Source of the DNA: Eledone cirrhosa
Lineage: Eukaryota
DNA length: 64,000 bases
Assembly (NCBI GenBank): GCA_964016885.1
Contig: OZ024743.1
Span: 27,218,001 to 27,282,000, forward strand
Direction: 5' to 3'
Shown: positions 11,617 through 62,378 of the stretch, piece after piece
Position numbering within the stretch: position 1 is the stretch's first letter
Layout of the letters: every line of letters starts with the position of its first letter
Notes under the pieces: model-generated
Databases searched by the model: none
Seen by the model: only the letters and a program-made list of their open reading frames with translations
Told to the model about the DNA's origin: nothing
Position numbers and translations under genes: made by a program

Positions 11617-11910
11617 TGGCTTTGTCGTATTCGGGTCACAATCGTAAGGTCGTCAGTTCGATTCCCGGTGGAGCGTTTTGTCTTTGAGCAAGACACTTTA
11701 TTTCACTTTGCTCCACTCCATTCAATTGACAAAAATGAATTGTACCTGTAATTCGAAGGGCCAGCCTTGTCACACTGAATCTCAATGAGAACTACGATAA
11801 AGGTATACGTCATTATGGAATGCTCAACCACTTGTACGTTAATTTCATGAGCAGGCAGTTCCGTTGATCGGATCAACTACAACACTCGTCGTCGTAACCG
11901 ACGGAGCGCC
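11617..11910 (+). mobile_element. tRNA/CORE SINE family B (OR-type)
   Basis: B box GTTCGATTCCC, CORE-like tgagcaagacactttatttcac..gctccac, tail cgtaaccgacggagcgcc. Confidence 0.85.
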
Positions 11911-12149: not shown

Positions 12150-12199
<50 letters not shown>

Positions 12200-12252
12200 G
12201 GAAAAAATGAAACGAAATTTCATTTCCCACTCTTAGTACGGCTGTTACTTAA

Positions 12253-12753
12253 ATATAAGTATGTACACGTACATACATATATGTATACAGACGTACAGTA
12301 GTATGTATATATATATACATACATGCACACATATATATATATATGTACGTATGGATTCACCGAACATTTATTATAATGCTCGGTGTGTTTGTAAACAAGC
12401 ATCCCGTATTAAGCCGTAGTGTCCAGCAACCATCGTCGCTCGTTTGTTCAACACTGACAAAGGAACGCTGTACTAGTTTCAAGCTTATTAGCTATCGTCA
12501 GCAACGTATACCTTCCTACCAGATTGTTGAACGTATATACTTACCTTATGATTAACCCACTCGATATGCAAATTGGGCTACTCAGCCGTTAATATGCGTT
12601 AATACGGGATGTTTGTTTACAAACATACCGAGCATTATAATAAATGTTCGGTGAATCCATACGTACATATATATATGTGTGCATGTATGTGTATATATAT
12701 ACATACTACTGTACGTCTGTATACATATATGTATGTACGCGTACATACTTATA

Positions 12754-12755
<2 letters not shown>
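12253..12755. repeat. Inverted repeat, arms 12253-12412 and 12599-12755, with a hammerhead in the spacer
   Basis: gtatggattcaccgaacatttattataatgctcgg pairs with ccgagcattataataaatgttcggtgaatccatac; flanked by (TA)n and (TC)n(TA)n. Confidence 0.92.
12466..12506 (-). ncRNA. Type I hammerhead ribozyme motif
   Basis: Minus strand CGUUG-CUGACGA-U-AGCU-AAUA-AGCU-U-GAAAC-UA-GUA-CAGCG: intact core, palindromic stem III ACUAGU, GUA cleavage triplet. Confidence 0.8.
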
Positions 12756-12812
<57 letters not shown>

Positions 12813-13044
12813 GTATACATACTTATACACACACACACACGCACATGTACGCACAAATACACATACACACATATATATATATATATGGTTTTTTTTTATA
12901 GATGTGTGTACGTATAATATGTGTTTGTGTGTGTACTTTGTTTTGTTTTATTTGCCCTTTATATATTTCTATCACTTTTTATGATATGGGTGATATAATG
13001 GATGTTTATTCCGCAGTCTGCATCTGTTGTCATATCGATATGTA

Positions 13045-24721: not shown

Positions 24722-27700
24722 GTTCTTCTGGTTTTATAATTTCACAAAGTTTTAACAATAGAGAGAGAGTCGGTTTCTACATAGATACAAGACTCTCTCA
24801 TTGGAATTTACACAACATCAACTAGGTAGATATGTATGTATGCATGCATGTGTAGATATGGATGTTATTGTAAGTGTGGATGTGTATGTTTTGAGTTGTA
24901 TGTGTGCATGTGTATATGCTTTGCATCTGCACATGTGTATATGCAGTTATTAGATGCAAAATGTTTGGAATGTTTTACATATTTTTACTGTTCCATTAAT
25001 GGATTGTACTTGTAATTTCCTAACGAGTTGTGTTCTTTCTGTTCCTGTGAAGCCTAGCTTCTCAAGATTTGTATTGAGGCAGTTACTAACATACTCCAGT
25101 GCCCCAATAATCACAAGCATAAATCTGAAGGTGTAATCAGGGTGGAGTATCTGCAGATTTCTCATCAGTTCTGCATAAATATTCTCCTTTTCACTAATCT
25201 TTGATATTATATTGGCATCTGCTGGGCAGCTAATTTCCACTACTGTGCATGTTTTCTTCTCCCTGTCCCATATCATAATATCTGGTCTGTTATGCCTGCA
25301 TTTTATTGGGGTTTTACTGGAACATTCCACCAGTACTCTTTCATATTATGTACATGGATGTCTTCCACATTGCTGTAGCTTTTAATGTGTTTATTATCAG
25401 GGCTATCTTTTTTACGAACTGCATTGTACAGTGTTTTGGCCACTACATCATGCCTCATAGGTAGATAGTACCGCGATGACATCTTTGGACAGCTGCTGAT
25501 GACATGGGTGATATCCTCGATGTTAGTTCTGCAGAGTCTGCACTTGTTATCACATCTAGGTGTTTTGTGAATCAGGTATTTCCTGTCAATTTCCTGTTCT
25601 TGGATTGCAAAAGCGTATCCTTCAAAGTGGGAGCCAATATAGCGGTTGTTGGTCCAAGATAGACTACTTTCCTTATCTATATTACTCTCACTCAGGAGCT
25701 TCCTGGCAACATATCCATGCATGATTTTTTGCTGATAAGTATGCAGTCTTTCATCCATGGATTCACTGCGATACTGCTGAGCGACTTCCCTGGGTGTGAG
25801 ATTTTGATTATCATACAGGGAATATTTCTCGAGGAGTTCTTTCCCAACTCTCATGATCTTATCTGTTTCATGCAGATAGACTTGCTCGAGAAACGGGCTC
25901 CTACGCTTCGAGGTTCGTAGATGTTGTCGGAGAGATATGATGCGACATTCAAATGTTGTCTGGACTGATGTTAGGCCTCTGCCTCACTGCTTACGTTTGA
26001 AGTAAAGGCGGTCTATGTCACTGTTGATGTGGAAGTTTCCGATGCTGTTCAGTATTTTTCGAGTTCCAACATCAACTGCTCGGATTTCGTCTATCGTCCA
26101 ATTGAGTATTCCAAACGTTGGTGTTAGGACAGGCACAGCAAACACATTGTGAGCCACTGTTTTGTTTTGCGCAGAGAGTTCCGATGATCAGATCTTTCTT
26201 AATCGGGTGTAGTATTTCCTGGTTACGCGTTCTTTATTACAGATACCATTATAGAATATGTTCTAATCTATCCCCAGGTATCTGTAGCAGTCCTCATCAG
26301 ATATCCGTGAAACAGTTAGGTCATTGATGACAATGTTGCTAGATTGGGTTGTTGTTTTTCCCCGCTTTACATTCATGTATGAGCATTTATCTTGGCCAAA
26401 CTCCATTCCCATATCCTTTGAGAACGTTGTAACCAGTTCAAGATTTTTCTTCATCACATCCATGCTCTTGGCATAGAGTTTCAGATCGTCCACAAAGAAA
26501 TTATGGGTTAGGTTCGTATTTCTGTCCTCCTGTGAGCCAATGATGTATCCCTCACATTTCTTGAGCAGAAAGGACAAGGGGTTTAATGACAAGATGAATA
26601 ATATCACAGAGAGACTGTCCCCCTGAAATATACCCCTGCAATATTTTATTTTATCAGTGAAAATAGAGTCCTCCCTCTCTGTCTTTAACCGTAGGATAGT
26701 AGCCCAAGAAGAAGACAGTCTATCTATGCCTCTGACAATAATGTCTGGGACTTTAGAAAGTTGGAGGGCCTCTATCATCCAAGAGTGGGGAACAGAATCG
26801 AAAACTTTCCTGTAGTCCAGCCAGACTCTAGCCATATTCCTCCTAAGTTGTCGCACCTCCGACATCGTAGTTTTGTCGATTAGGAGTTGTTCAGCACATC
26901 CCCAAACCCCTTTCTTTCCAGATGCTTGTTCATCTGTGATGATGTTATTATTTTCACAGTGATCTTGGAGGAATAGGTTCAGGCAGGCTGTATACATCTT
27001 ATACATCAGGTTCTGGCATGCAATGGGTCGGTAGTTTTTTGCCAAGTGGGTGTCTTTGTTCTTGGGGACCAGTAATGTTTGTGCTAATGTCAACCATTCT
27101 GGTATAAGTGTATCTCCCTTAAGAACTTGTTGGTATCTTTCTGGGATGGGGCCTCAGTCCTCAGTGACACTTATTATTTTGCCCTTTATATCTCTATAGA
27201 CTAATGCTTGGTTTCGTCTGAATCTTTTATTAAGCACTTTTCTCTCATCTACCTTCTTCAGGTATCGGCGTTTTTCGCTAACAGCTCTCAATTCTTGTTT
27301 GAGGGTGATCAGCTTATATTGGAGAGTTCTGGTTCTACTGTTACAAAACATCGTCTCTATTTTATTTTCCAATCTATGTTAATGAGGAGTGAGGGGTTTT
27401 TTTGTGTTTGTTTGCATGTAAGGAGCATTGTCACATATCCTATATTTTTTCGTAGGTCAGCAATCTTTTTTTCTATTTTAGTTATATATGATGGTATTTT
27501 TGGTGGTGTTCTGTTCTTGTTAATATCTCTGCTATCACCAAGATAATGCTTCACTGTCGTTGCTAAGGCATATAAACAGGCGTTGATTTGCCAAATTGGA
27601 GTTTTTATCTGTCGTAAATATTCATCCCCTATTTCGTCAATAACACGTAATATTTCATTATTTGGTTTTTTATTAAACATTGTGGTTTTAATACGTTCAG

Positions 27701-28518
27701 CAAGAGAGATATTTATACATGAATTAATTTCTCTCTGGAAGATTTCGTCAAGGGAAAATTTCAATTGTTTATACTTTTGATTATTATCATTATCGATAGT
27801 ATTTTCCACAACAGTCGAGGTAGACTCGGATGGTACACGTGGTGTCAAATTTCTTCGATTATTATTATTATTTCTTCGATTATTATTATTATCGATAGTG
27901 TTTTCCCCAGCATTCGAGGTAGACTTAGATGGTACAGGTGGTGTCAAGTTTCTTACAGGCATAGTTGTTTCAAGACACAGTTCGACCTGGCTGCTAGGAG
28001 GTCTAGTAGTATGGCCACCTGAGCACATGTTGTTGATCCCATTTTTGTTGTGGGAGACTTACAATTAATAATATTTATCTTATTTTTACGTTCAACAAAC
28101 GTCGTTTGTTGGCGTAATTGTTTCGCTGTGAAATAATTTAGCTCTGGGCGCATTTCGTCCCAGTGTAGCTTCATTCTGTTCATATAGCCAATGCATGGAT
28201 TGTTTTTTTATCATTTTATAACAATTAAATAAATCATTATTAAGTTCGCAACTCCAAGAGAAATGTGATTTATAATTTCGGTCTCTTCTGTAGCTACAAC
28301 TGAACAAAGTTTGTTTACCTTCCCTGTTATTTGTCTTCAGTACTTCCTTAATTTTGTTGTTGATGTTGTGAAGATATAGTTAGAAGAATAACCAGTTATT
28401 CAACATGACTGTAGTTGTGACATTACTGTCGGAGATAGTATTCATCTTAAATTTAATAATTAGTCTCCCACGCCAAAATATGCGACTGATCGCGTTGACT
28501 GTATATGTATGTTGACTG

Positions 28519-29299: not shown

Positions 29300-31975
29300 A
29301 GGAATAAGAATAAAGCAAAATACAAAAATTACGCGAAAGATCGAGTGAAACTCAACATTTGTTGTTGCAACGTTAGGACACTCCTGGATAGAAACTCGTC
29401 TGGACATCCAGAGCGTAGAACTGCATTTGTGACAAAAGAACCCAGAAGATTGAACATAGACATAGTAGCTTTATCTGAAACACGTTTGGCGGGAGAAGAT
29501 CAATTAACAGAAGTATCATCAGCTTCTCTCTTTTTGGGGTAGGTAAACCCATTGCTGAACGGAGAGAAGGCGATGTTGGCTTCGCCATTAGAATATCCCT
29601 GCTTAATCGCATGGAATATCCTGCAGGTGTAACCGTTCACATTATGAAGCTTCGTATTCCTCTGAGATATGGCCATTATGTAACACCTTTGTCTGTTTAT
29701 GCACCAACCATACAGGCCAGTGAGATGGTCCTTGATTCTTTCTATGGGTCTCTTCATGCTGTCATTACATGCACACCTGCTGACGATAAGTTATTACTTC
29801 TCGGTGATTTTAATGCTCGTGTCGGTAGTGATCACGAGATGTGGGGCGCCCTCGGTTCATTTGGAATTGGTAAAATGAACACCAGCGGCATGAGGCTACT
29901 TGAACTTTGCTCAGAACTCAACTTAACCACCTGCTACACTCTTTTCCGCCAGAAGCTCAAATATAAAGCTACCCGGTATCATCCAAGGTTCATGCATGGA
30001 CACATGATTGATTTCATCATCACTCGTAAACGAGATCTAAGTGATGTGTGTACAGTGCGTGTGTTGCGTAGTGCAGAATGTGGCACTGACCATAAACTAG
30101 TGCGAGGAAAGTTGAAGATGATATCTGCAAAAGAATTTGTATGAGTGGAGTGAAAGCACCGAAACGCATTGATGTCACCAAACTGAGGTGAGAAGATGTG
30201 CGTGCAACCCTAACTGAAATATTCGATGTTCTCGATTTTGATGGCACCCGGGAAAACTTTAGAGATCAAGTTTACTCAGTGGGAGCTGAGGCACTTGGCT
30301 TCAGAACCAAGAAACACTACGACTGGTTCAATGACAACAATCCAATATCAATCAGCTACTGGAAGCCAAGCACACTCTCTATGAAAAGCTCCTGAATCAG
30401 AATCCCGTAGCACAACTAGCTGTCAGGAAAGCCTACGGAGATCACAAGGCAACACTGCAACGCGAACTGCGTAGGATGCAAAATGAGTGGTAGAGTAATA
30501 TCTCCTCGGAAATCTAATAGGCTTTTAACACCAAAGATTTGAAGTCATTATATTCATTGATACGCCAAGTATTCGGCCCACCAACATCCTCTGTAACTCC
30601 TCGGAGATCTAAAGACAATGCCAATACCATCACCAAAGAGCCACCAAAAATCCTTCAGCGTTGGGAGGAACATTTTACTGACCTGTTTGACAACCCATCA
30701 GCAGTCAATTTTGGAGTGATAGAGAGCTTTCCTCAATGTAAAACAGTCGACCGTATGGATCGTGTTTCTTCTGCTGATGAAATAAAGCTGGCAGTCAAGC
30801 AGGTTAACTCTGGCAAGGCACCAGGTCCAGATGGTAACCCAGACGAACTGCTGAAAGTCGGTAGTGATAATGTAATGGAAGCAGTAAAGAACTTCATCTC
30901 TGATTGCTGGAATAGGACCCCAGTTCCACAAAACTGGATCAACGGTATTCTGTTATCATTATACAAAGGCAAAGGTGAAAAATCGATATGTGGCAACTAC
31001 CATGGCATCACTTTGTTGGAAGATGTTGGTAAGATTCTCGAAAGACTTTTGCTCAACAGACTGGAGGACGATATCTGAATCCCAGAGTGGCTTTAGAGGA
31101 GGAACGGGAACATTTTACATGATTTTCTCTGTAAGACAAATACAAGAAAAATACATTGAGCAGTGTGTTCCTCCATATCAAGTCTTTGTCGACCTAAAGA
31201 AGTCTTTTGACACAGTTAACAGAGATGCACTGTGGATAATATTTGGAAAACTGGGATGTCCACCTAAGTTTCTGAGTATGCTAAAGCAGCTGCGCAGAAA
31301 TATGAAAGCTCGGCTTACCTTCAATGGTCAACTATCTGGGGAAATCCAAATTGATAACGGGGTAAAGCAAGGTCATATTCCTGCTCCTACGCTTTTCTCC
31401 ATTTTCCTTGCTGCCTTGTTCACACATGCTTCCCATGATTGTGACAGAGGCATTCTCTTACGATTCAGAACTACTGGAAAGGTTTTCAACTTAAGAAGGT
31501 TTAATGCCAAGACAAAAACCTTTCAAGCTAAGATAAGAGACCTTCTTTACATCGACGACTCTGACTTCCTAGTACACACAGAAGCTGATATGTAACGCAT
31601 TATGGATCGTTTCTCATCCTCGTGTACAGCATTTGGGCTTACAATCTGCCTTAAAAAGACCAAAGTAATGTTTACCCCTGCTCCTGGAGAACCATATACT
31701 GAACCCAATATCATGGTTGATGGAACCAAGTTGGGAGTAGTAGATAAATTTGTCTACTTGGGTAGCACACTCTCAAATTATGGCTCTTTGGATGCTGAAA
31801 TACATCTGTGCATCCAGAAGGCCTCTGTTGCCCTCAGAAAATTGGAAAAGAGAGTTTGGTCAAATCGCAACATTACCAACAATACAAAGGTGTGTGTATG
31901 TATAGATCATGTCTGCTCTTTTATACTTCGCCGAAACCTGGACGTTATTCCGCAAACACACCAAATTGTTTGAGC
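29300..31975 (+). mobile_element. Degenerate RTE-clade LINE (APE endonuclease plus RT)
   Basis: APE motifs NVRTLLD, IVALSETRL, SVYAPT, GDFNARVG, IDFII, TDHKLV; RT motifs GKAPGPDG, FVDLKKSFDTV, GVKQG, LLYIDD, KTKVM, FVYLGS; stops and frameshifts. Confidence 0.93.
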
Positions 31976-32505
31976 TCAGAATGTGAAGATTATCATGGTA
32001 TAAGTCCGCTCGAATCGGTAGAAAAAGTCTTATCCAAGGTCTTGTTGAATCGTCTAATAAAATGGATCTGCCCTGGTGCCATCCCTGAGACCCAGTGTGG
32101 ATTCAGAGCTGGGCGGTTTACTATGGGCATTATTTTCATTGCCCGCCAGATTATGGAGAATTGTGCCGAGCAGCAAGTACCGCAATACCAAATATATGTG
32201 GACCTTACTAAGGCCTTCAATACTGTTAATAGTACTACATTATGGGTCATATTGGGGAAACTTGGAAGACCTCATGAGTTTGTTTGAATATTCAGAAAAC
32301 TCCATCAACATATGAAAGCAATGGGATATTTTCAGAGACAATTTCAGTGGAAAACGGTGTTAAGCAAGGCGACATACCTGCAACCACTCTGTTCTCATAC
32401 TCTTCGTCATGTTGCTGACATATGTCTTCCAAGATTTCGAAATTGGTTTATACTTCCGAATTAGAACCTCTGGTAAAGTCCTTAATCTAAGACGGTTTAA
32501 CTCTA
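31976..32505 (+). mobile_element. Second RTE RT fragment, a diverged paralogue of about 30990-31505
   Basis: PETQCGFRAGR, YVDLTKAFNTV, NGVKQGDI, FRIRTSGKVLNLRRFN. Confidence 0.85.
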
Positions 32506-51917: not shown

Positions 51918-52553
51918 CTACAACTGTACGCTATGGGGCCCACCCACAGCCCCGGCGGACAGAATGGAGAAGGCGTTTCCTCGGAGGACGGCAAGGGAGA
52001 CGCGCTGGAAAAGCCACTCCAACTCGCGGGGCTCACACCTGCGGCTGGCCAGCTCAGCGCATATGATGGTGAGTAAGGAGGTAGCCCTGGGGCCGAGGAC
52101 ACCAGAAGTCTTGACTGCCAGAGGTACGACCGCAAACCTGTAGGAGAGCGACCGGTATTTGAGGATTTTGGCTCCCTCATCCCGACGTGCAGCAGAATCT
52201 GGGTCAACCGCAGACTGCACTAGGTTGCGGCTGCAGAAAGTGTCGGTGCAAGTGGAATCCCAGACGAGGCGTTTGCCACCGCGGAACGGAAAGATGGTCA
52301 TGCCATCTGGCCTTTTGCCGTCCCCTCGATCCAGCCCCACCGGCTCGAGCTGGGAAGGGAAGCCTGCAGCAACCAAGCCGTGCTTAATGACCACGTTGCG
52401 GGCAGCATGTCGAGGAATGCGGCCGGCACTGTGGCGACAGGAAAGGGGGTGGAGGCCGAAAGAATCCACGGTGGAACCGCAGCGACATTGGTGTGGGTAG
52501 CAGATCCGGAGGCCGAGCCTCAGGGAAACGCCGATGCGCAAAATGACTATCAT
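51918..52553 (-). mobile_element. CRE-clade C-terminal zinc knuckle plus restriction-like endonuclease (family A)
   Basis: RLGL..C.CG...HPLSC..RH..EP...RPDG...VWD..K..KY..PLAV.T.G..G..QRVSLAVLRGN, open for 211 aa. Confidence 0.9.
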
Positions 52554-53612
52554 CCAGTGCTTTTCACCAGATGCCAGCCTCTTAATAAACTTCCAAAGAA
52601 CATTTCACTTCGGACAACAGCACTTGTTTTCTATAGCTACTATACATTTTGCTGTTTAGTCAGTTAAGTAAGGAAAATGCCCACAACACTTCCTAGGAAA
52701 CTATTCTCAAACTAGAGACTTGGATCGACTGCTTGTGATAGAGTGGCTTCCGCTAAAGACTCCCATAGGGTAAGTGGTGGTGTTAAACTGATAGTCAGAT
52801 TACATCTACTACCCAATTAAACCAGAGGGGATACAAATGCAAAATGTTTTATGCGGTAAAAGTGTAAATAATTTTTTTTTTGTTTGGCTTTTGTTTTTAC
52901 CACTTTATTTCCATTATTTCCGATATATTTTGTAGTGAGTTTATAAACACTTCACCTATATGCTAGTGACAACAGTCTATCATAATATACCGTTGTTGTA
53001 GCGAATAGTATTTTCTCTATAGTGATTATTTGCTTGGTAATAGAGAAAATCTCGAAATGGTTGGGAAAAATTTATATCTATATGATTGGGATTTATATCC
53101 TCTATTGAGCAAAACATGATGAAAATCTATAATGAAAAACCTTCGACAGTGGCTATCCATCCATTTGTATAGCAGGGTCTGCCTTCTTTACTGTATTGAG
53201 TTTTGACTGATATTTCAAGTAAGTCGATCTACCGCAAGAGGCTCCTTGATACACATCGACAAAACACACACACAAATACACACATACACACATACACAAA
53301 CACACGAACACACACACATATCTGGAAGAGAGCGCATTCACAGTGTTTGCGCCTGTGTTCTTCATCTTTATTAAATATATAAATATTGAGATTGAAATTA
53401 ATAGAGTATGAAAGGTACAATAGATAACGTCCCGAGATTCTACAAATTCAATTATGACACATAAATGAAATATGTATGAAAACTATAACATAGGACCTTA
53501 GGTTTAAAGAAAAGTAATATATATGTATATATTATATATAGAGAGAGAGAGTGGGAGAGAGAGAGAGAGAGAAAAACATGAAGTTTACAGTTAAATTACG
53601 TAAAATGTAATC

Positions 53613-61401: not shown

Positions 61402-61551
61402 AGGGTTAAAATACTGGAGCGTGTTGGAGTTAAACACCCTCTTCGTATTATAGAAATGACAGTAAAAGGTATAGCTCAATGTAGTTAAACAGAGCCGAAA
61501 AATTAAGAGAGTAAAACAAAGAAGCCTTCAATACATCAAAAGTCTTTATTA

Positions 61552-61589
61552 GCCGACAATGTTTCGTCCTATTAAGGACTCATCAGGGC
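61552..61589 (-). ncRNA. Minimal type I hammerhead ribozyme
   Basis: GCC-CUGAUGA-GUCCU-UAAU-AGGAC-GAAAC-AUU-GUC-GGC followed by UAAUAAA. Confidence 0.88.
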
Positions 61590-62290
61590 AATTAAAACAA
61601 CAAGAAGTAATATCGGCAGATACAAGCCGGAAGCTCCGAAGAATATGGAGTGTACATACACTAAAGTATTGCAAAAATATATAATAAAAATAATAAAAAT
61701 ATATAATAAAAATTACTAAGGATGTATATAACATTAAGAACCATATTACAAATATAGTCCAAAGCAAAAAAACATAGAGCTAAACAAAGGTGGTTATATA
61801 GAGCAGGAATTATATATAATACAATGTAATATAATATAATATAATATACCTTTATCAACATTAAAATTACAATAAAAATCAAAAGGTACAATATGCATAT
61901 GTATATATGTGCGCACACGTACACACACATACACATACAACAATACACACATCCATATGTGCGCACATATATACATATGCATATTGTACCTTTTGATTTT
62001 TATTGTAATTTTAATGTTGGTAAAGGTATATTATATTATATTATATTATATTACATTGTATTATATATAATTCCTGCTCTGTATAACCACTTTTGTTTAG
62101 CTCTAGGTTTTTTTGCTTTGGACTATATTTGTAATATGGTTCTTAATGTTATATACATCCTTAGTAATTTTTATTATATATTTTTATTATTTTTATTATA
62201 TATTTTTGCAATACTTTAGTGTATGTACACTCCATATTCTTCGGAGCTTCCGGCTTGTATCTGCCGATATTACTTCTTGTTGTTTTAATT

Positions 62291-62328
62291 GCCCTGATGA
62301 GTCTTTAATAGGACGAAACATTGTCGGC
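62291..62328 (+). ncRNA. Minimal type I hammerhead ribozyme
   Basis: GCC-CUGAUGA-GUCUU-UAAU-AGGAC-GAAAC-AUU-GUC-GGC; predicted cleavage after C62325; AATAAA at 62330-62335. Confidence 0.88.
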
Positions 62329-62378
62329 TAATAAAGACTTTTGATGTATTGAAGGCTTCTTTGTTTTACTCTCTTAAT

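Follow-up and report, generated by a model that had tools for sequence, protein, structure and literature searches.

Structure of the insertion in the window

Between a (TA)n repeat and a (TC)n(TA)n tract of the window (the whole 64,000-nucleotide stretch of Eledone cirrhosa contig OZ024743.1 that was analysed) lies a long hairpin made of two arms of one repeat unit, joined head to head. Table 1 gives its features, with unit positions counted from the first base after the cleavage site (u1). The two halves of the inverted repeat are 95% identical over 160 columns and enclose a loop that holds a minus-strand hammerhead, and these elements, like the two bounding tracts, are placed as they were in the preliminary description of this DNA.

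Table 1. Features of the two-armed insertion, its hammerhead and the comparison element in the window.
Feature	Position	Strand	Remarks
(TA)20 target repeat, left flank	12157-12196	.	
Long arm	12194-12550	-	u341-u420, then u1-u273; mapping on unit
Tail	12194-12252	-	u215-273, long arm only; predicted hairpin, flanked by the fixed 3' end sites
Inverted repeat, left half	12253-12412	-	long arm u59-214
Hairpin loop	12413-12598		186 nt, contains hammerhead
Hammerhead with extended stem I	12446-12532	-	MFE fold and alignment of copies
Minimal type I hammerhead	12466-12506	-	cleavage predicted between 12471 and 12470
Stem I, 5' strand	12506-12502	-	5 bp with 3' strand
Stem I, 3' strand	12470-12466	-	
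Core CUGACGA	12501-12495	-	
Helix II	12494-12481	-	U.U at base, 4 bp, loop AAUA; then GAAA
Helix III		-	single A-U pair and palindromic loop CUAG
Cleavage triplet GUA		-	cut predicted after 12471
Head-to-head junction	12550-12551	.	u341 / u295
Short arm, start	12551-12597	+	u295-341
Gap in short arm	12597-12599	+	137 nt, u342-u58, spanning the short-arm hammerhead; present in L002
Short arm, remainder	12599-12754	+	u59-214, to short end site; inverted repeat right half
Right flank	12756-12790, 12790-12821	.	(TC)n, then (TA)n
Family B comparison element	61402-62378	.	head-to-head ends; minimal hammerhead in both arms; tail of ~100 nt in left arm only

The u341/u295 junction, as read from the assembled sequence, occurs at only two places in the genome, namely in the window and at locus L002 (insertion L002:1198-1900), which lies on the same contig at a distance of 1.27 Mb, has unrelated flanks and carries a hammerhead in both arms. 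With its junction confined to these two places, the hairpin is ruled out as an independent mobile unit. Loop II of the short-arm hammerhead in L002 has a short insert repeating a word from u332-340, and the same word is found at the deletion point of the window copy. It is likely that the window short arm lost its hammerhead through a later deletion of 137 nt, and the likeliest history that we infer for the pair is a local copy at the DNA level followed by deletion near the centre of the long palindrome. Because L002 has the same unique junction and keeps both hammerheads while the window lacks these 137 nt, the position of the window ribozyme in the loop is incidental. The window copy was most likely dead on arrival.

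The hammerhead motif

A hammerhead descriptor matched the 64-kb window once and none of 100 first-order Markov simulations, so that the minus-strand motif first described at this site stands. The motif has the core CUGANGA...GAAA...UH, three helices and the open helix I of type I hammerheads, and it has two weak spots, a helix III of 1 bp closed by CUAG and a helix II that starts with a U.U pair. Its MFE fold has a z-score of -2.2, with 4 of 200 shuffles folding as well. An Rfam search of the window returned no hammerhead model, either at the gathering score or among the 95 matches at E<=10, and the microRNA matches that it did return stem from TA-rich sequence.

The preliminary description extended stem I across a bulge containing GGUAUA. 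The extension itself is borne out by distal pairings in the MFE fold; the particular bulge, the candidate partner of loop II in a tertiary contact, is one of two equivalent registers, as it and a UAUA/UU internal loop pair equally well (92.2% vs 92.1%) in 60 aligned copies, and RNAalifold did not recover the distal stem. This alignment consists of 60 of 77 full-context rows plus the window, chosen by core pattern and by hand. Within stem I, pair 31-67 is UG in 21 copies, GU in 17, AU in 16, CG in one and unpaired in five, a pattern that, read from the alignment, represents a few subfamily events and not independent changes. On the same alignment, the window motif is classed as a natural hammerhead of type I that is conserved and whose stem I is extended.

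A family of 420-nt hammerhead repeats

The window copy belongs to a large family. Exact matches to a core pattern of 30 letters number 12,460 in the 3.0-Gb genome (none for the reversed control); a second pattern, mainly catching a sister subfamily, has 12,935 matches and the 3' module has 31,627. The lengths of 26 monomers, cut between neighbouring cleavage sites, have their mode at 420 nt, and most monomers differ by 1-5% from the majority sequence. The unit has a GC content of 38%, its predicted circle is 71% paired, and it lacks a reading frame with RT plus GIY-YIG; the longest ATG frame is 49 aa in sense and 97 aa in antisense, in agreement with the earlier statement that the element is ORF-less. 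Arms of up to 2.9 kb are built solely of repeated units, and the mapped loci have no terminal repeat besides the unit itself. These properties are shared with the animal non-LTR retrozymes of PMC7229834, which are ORF-less tandem units of a few hundred bases (350-390 bp in mussel, 330/350 bp in axolotl and 220-240 bp in coral), each with a type I hammerhead, with a GC content under 50%, thousands of copies and a self-paired predicted circle. Retrozymes are recognised as tandem units of 150-450 bp that each carry a type I hammerhead; the main family has this organization, and the units of the sister subfamily measure 466-538 nt. By its sequence characters, then, the family is an animal non-LTR retrozyme.

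Comparison of the two subfamily majorities reveals two differences among the 31 positions of the core plus helices II-III (one at N7, a free position of the core, and one in loop II) and 2 among the 49 of the 3' module, u166-214, vs 24 among the 91 of the body; it should be noted that the second-subfamily pattern itself enforced the core, and that this subfamily was first met through its 3' module. Together with the UG, GU and AU forms of the stem I pair, these values provide the covariation and core conservation among copies that had been put forward as a check on the original description. A hairpin in the body is fully paired both in the main family and in L157, a divergent copy in which both partners of four pairs have changed; correction of hairpins at the DNA level is possible as well. 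In a minor subfamily (L031, L094, L109 and L058), helix II starts with C-G or C.A and the cleavage triplet is GUU, which offers a natural control for the question of the U.U pair.

In two arrays, L064:1137-3073 and L198:1331-4231, variants recur every two or three units, which therefore point to duplication at the DNA level; L198 also has three insertions with identical breakpoints, a local duplication. Only four rare variants are common to all units of an insertion. Given these arrays and the scarcity of insertion-wide variants, rolling-circle copying from a monomer is unsupported. At L064, contig depth over the 3' module greatly exceeds that over the hammerhead region in runs X4, X5 and X6 (labelled organisms B and C), an excess that may come from other elements with the same module, which is TA-rich, and depth here is not copy number. 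The contigs, from four runs of unrecorded kind placed on this tandem locus, carry no information about expression or ends.

Insertion ends and pairing of arms

Of the first 113 loci, 104 were mapped on the unit and nine overlapping or duplicate loci were dropped. The 5' ends of the mapped arms are scattered, and the 3' ends are fixed near u214 (short) or u273 (long), some 59 nt apart, and followed by (TA)n. In the set taken in chromosome order, most arm ends fall at u205-222 or u258-276. The insertion targets are (TA)n, which would mask any target-site duplications; those of animal non-LTR retrozymes, when present, exceed 4 bp.

Head-to-head arms are present in 38 of the 82 complete insertions of the chromosome-ordered set. 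All 25 pairs in which both ends could be classified combine one long and one short arm (P about 3e-8 by chance), and the other 13 have one end elsewhere. The best-hit set gave the same result for 19 of 19 head-to-head pairs, with one more unclassifiable, so that the pooled sets contain 44 long-plus-short pairs among 44 classifiable ones, with one end unclassifiable in 14 of 58 head-to-head insertions. The sister subfamily follows suit (4 of 4), and among 28 loci picked by their 3' module regardless of the hammerhead, inspection by eye found at least 11 long-plus-short pairs and none with ends alike. Short inverted remnants, also judged by eye, add three long-plus-short pairs and one possible long-plus-long pair, L087. 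One tail-to-tail pair was seen at L085.

The relationship between the two arms of a pair bears on how the second arm arose. In one scenario, proposed for Penelope-like elements (PLEs) in PMC3846280 and PMC8557442, a single cDNA or antisense template folds back and primes itself, the second arm is copied from the first, and the tail is left by endonuclease resolution. The lengths of 28 of the 44 pairs are compatible with one arm having been copied from the other, some junctions have short overlaps or palindromes, and the arms share subfamily variants, with discordance at only 19 of 537 subfamily-diagnostic sites vs 38% in shuffles. This concordance is as expected of a single event and, at the level of sequence, would fit a single RNA without proving it. 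However, each arm has sequence absent from the other in the remaining 16 of 44 pairs, and therefore neither arm can be a fold-back copy there; moreover, most pairs show no relation between the points at which their two arms meet the junction. We therefore regard self-priming by fold-back as an improbable explanation.

PLE-type families in the same genome

The inverted, 5'-truncated head-to-head copy, the tail at one end and the (TA)n target that characterize this family are all traits of the PLE insertion unit; an inverted 5'-truncated copy with a one-end tail is described as a PLE signature in PMC3846280 and PMC8557442. The same anatomy is seen in family B, an autonomous PLE represented in the window at 61.5 kb, where it sits within a very long (TA)-rich tract. 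Family B has 2,325 core matches in the genome, and its complete copies, with a repeat length of 4.67 kb, code for RT motifs as well as for a GIY-YIG-like region at the C terminus; copies of the family have open frames of 900-1081 codons, the longest of which includes a TA run. Pfam did not recognize the PLE frames; among their Atlas look-alikes, a minority of members have GIY-YIG and RT families, which we treat as a lead. Among 30 family B loci, all eight two-armed insertions are long plus short, with a tail of about 100 nt. The contrast previously drawn between the window hairpin and the 61.5-kb element is accordingly accidental, both being of the same long-plus-short design.

Because the long-plus-short pairing of the retrozyme equals that of autonomous family B, the hairpin is a by-product of PLE-type insertion. 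In full, we consider it very probable that the window hairpin is a truncated two-armed insertion of a 420-nt non-coding hammerhead retrozyme, likely mobilised in trans by a PLE. The shared insertion signature would also be expected if the sequence were no more than a truncated terminal repeat belonging to an autonomous PLE. This is hardly credible: arms as long as 2.9 kb contain nothing but repeated units, and none of the 104 mapped loci has an arm running from the unit into a PLE frame, the frames nearby being separate elements.

A protein search for the autonomous partner returned only family B. Between the unit and PLE families B and D, the two that were compared, there is only low-complexity likeness and no homologous pseudo-LTR; family D, a hammerhead family adjoining a retrozyme arm, was considered as the partner and set aside, being without homology to the unit. 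The adjoining arms lie at L204:2336-2620, where a retrozyme long arm is flush, head to head, with an arm of family D, which also targets (TA)n, and both end at long sites; this one case could represent either a single event with two RNAs or separate events. Four or more additional families that resemble hammerhead repeats occur between (TA)n flanks (L201, L202, L210 and L217), and the genome holds many PLE-type families.

Predicted folding and cleavage

In its predicted resting fold, the single hammerhead pairs the CUG of its core with the UAG of the helix III loop. Computed energies, which exclude tertiary contacts, place the active fold 6.8 kcal/mol above this state, and the cost is the same whether it is computed for a 91-mer, for the transcript of the whole insertion or for the circle. 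In four tandem dimers, a double-hammerhead fold would cost 5.6-7.5 kcal/mol for two sites, or about 3 kcal/mol per site, vs 13.6-15.1 kcal/mol for two single folds. A lone hammerhead is thus predicted by these models to misfold and to need a partner hammerhead, and the earlier proposal that the palindromic helix III favours dimer cleavage agrees with the dimer calculations.

The preliminary description further proposed that the ribozyme, from its position in the unpaired loop, could cut the hairpin open, which would make the long RNA hairpin and its ribozyme a functional unit. The hammerhead does lie inside the 186-nt loop, its core is intact and its local fold is kept in the full minus-strand fold. 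Nevertheless, because the calculations predict misfolding of a single copy and its need for a partner, and this hammerhead has none on the same strand, the idea that it cuts the hairpin open is unsupported. Its placement also varies among the 25 ordered pairs, with the hammerhead in both arms in 13, in the short arm only in nine, in the long arm only, as in the window, in two, and in neither in one; furthermore, the junction is confined to two places, one of which, L002, has both hammerheads. We consider a role as a loop cutter extremely unlikely.

An unbiased census of the first 100 matches to the 3' module on C1 showed that 58 of the 64 arms reaching u20 cross the cut site, and therefore that the templates were circular or uncut; a circle and an uncut multimer account equally well for such read-through. 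None of the 64 stops at u1-6 and six stop at u7-17, a rate not above that of neighbouring bins (P 0.20), with a small excess of stops just downstream of the cut site not excluded. Genome-wide, 11 5' ends fall exactly at u1, vs 10 and 36 at two control positions, the 36 also counting small deletions and a wider range of subfamilies. Neither the genome-wide count nor the C1 census thus showed an accumulation of 5' ends at the cut site that would mark cleavage in vivo.

This footprint is what would be expected if the unit were a SINE-like or satellite sequence mobilised by a PLE from uncut tandem templates, with a hammerhead that no longer cleaves, arrays made by DNA duplication and no circular RNA stage. 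The weak helices II and III and the period-2 and period-3 arrays are likewise in favour of this possibility, but a hammerhead that has lost its function is difficult to reconcile with a core and helices II-III that differ at 2 of 31 positions between subfamilies vs 24 of 91 in the body, or with the covariation in stem I. On this evidence we regard it as unlikely, while giving it real weight.

Proposed mechanism of insertion

Strict long-plus-short pairing means that the two starts must be coupled, and coupling by a protein dimer on one RNA is, on balance, the simplest account. In PMC11167929, a PLE protein extends both target strands from starts at two sites that bound the tail, and unprocessed RNA is described as the main substrate of the PLE studied. 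We therefore put forward, tentatively and as one plausible reading, that the Eledone insertions record PLE integration in which an RT dimer, seated on one RNA at the tail hairpin, primes twice, once per cut strand and fixed site, and that the RNA of the retrozyme is circular, its one hammerhead being silenced by the loop of its own helix III and working only within tandem precursors. In the more general account of the insertion that we favour, tandem transcripts would cleave as a double hammerhead, with helix III formed between two CUAG palindromes, and the cleaved units would be ligated into circles, in which the single hammerhead would rest inactive with its core CUG paired to the loop UAG. 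The PLE RT-endonuclease would then cut a (TA)n target, both free 3' ends would prime cDNA, one at each of the start sites flanking the tail hairpin, and the two cDNAs would stop at varying points before being joined head to head. With one priming per strand and site, this dual-priming model would leave exactly one tail per two-armed insertion.

If the dual-priming reading is true, the anatomy of the insertions would directly prove the use of PLE machinery by an invertebrate retrozyme, and the family would supply a 420-nt substrate for testing the origin of the PLE tail and inversion. Near-strict long-plus-short pairing, in arms that are often not mutual copies, narrows the ways in which PLE inversions and tails may form, for which three ideas are in print. 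Likewise, the predicted off-state of the single hammerhead may explain how circular retrozyme RNAs avoid self-cleavage.

Comparison with known systems

Retrozymes, their proposed dependence on PLEs and the inverted-plus-tail unit of PLEs are all known already. For example, mobilisation of animal retrozymes by PLEs is a hypothesis in PMC7229834. What is added here is a retrozyme in which the insertion signature of PLEs is directly visible, next to an autonomous PLE that shares it, and we would like to emphasize that the family behind the feature originally described matters more than the by-product copy in the window. Compared with the retrozymes of PMC7229834, the Eledone insertions stand apart by the fixed position of their 3' ends, by a tail on one side only and by arms set head to head in (TA)n; the main text of that paper uses none of the words inverted, tail and microsatellite, and inverted arms or tails are not discussed in the main text of either that paper or the preprint on Xenopus retrozymes (bioRxiv 10.64898/2026.07.22.740005). 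The preprint, which describes Xenopus retrozymes derived from PLE pseudo-LTRs, argues that animal retrozymes are non-autonomous PLE derivatives, on evidence of co-occurrence and sequence homology, mainly in vertebrates, whereas the evidence in Eledone is insertion anatomy. A literature search that included cephalopod and mollusc terms and covered mostly open papers found no account of this family, nor of insertions of a retrozyme that bear the PLE signature; a family of this kind may be listed in the supplements to PMC7229834 and to the preprint.

Each weak feature of the window hammerhead has a counterpart in axolotl (PMC7229834): HHR_Amex1 has a 1-bp helix III with a palindromic tetraloop and HHR_Amex2 has a U.U pair at the base of helix II. 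Axolotl hammerheads with one or the other of these features cleaved by 6% and 22% in one hour as monomers and much better as dimers, and dimeric cleavage by hammerheads is also covered in PMC6155905. The window hammerhead, for which dimer dependence is a prediction, combines both weak features. Among Xenopus retrozyme dimers, eight of nine did not cleave, according to the preprint.

Endonuclease-bearing PLEs (PMC3846280, PMC8557442) insert as 5'-truncated tandem and inverted head-to-head copies with a one-end tail in (TA)n targets, as does the Eledone repeat, which differs in being non-autonomous and without an ORF and in having a tail of about 59 nt vs 30-40. A parallel to the two fixed sites is Poseidon of the green anole in vitro (PMC11167929), which has two internal RT start sites bounding the tail, an AT-rich target, extension of both strands and a predicted protein dimer. 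In that study, the start site in vitro does not differ between strands, in contrast to the genomic pairs of Eledone, which have almost strictly one of each site.

Other features of the window

At 11620-11760, the window contains what appears by eye to be the tRNA-like start of a candidate SINE-like repeat. Within the start of the short arm, at 12566-12573, there is an octamer-like word; it lies about 105 nt upstream of the cut site and is kept in both subfamilies. The idea of an snRNA-type promoter comes from newt satellite 2. Such a promoter is not supported for the present unit: three U2 loci of the genome are without an octamer within 500 nt, and the unit and these U2 loci have in common only AT-rich words of up to 12 nt. 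Elsewhere in the window, frame fragments that are presumably LINE-like, judging by their motifs, are located at 25306-28058 (-), 29479-32284 (+) and 51921-52604 (-).
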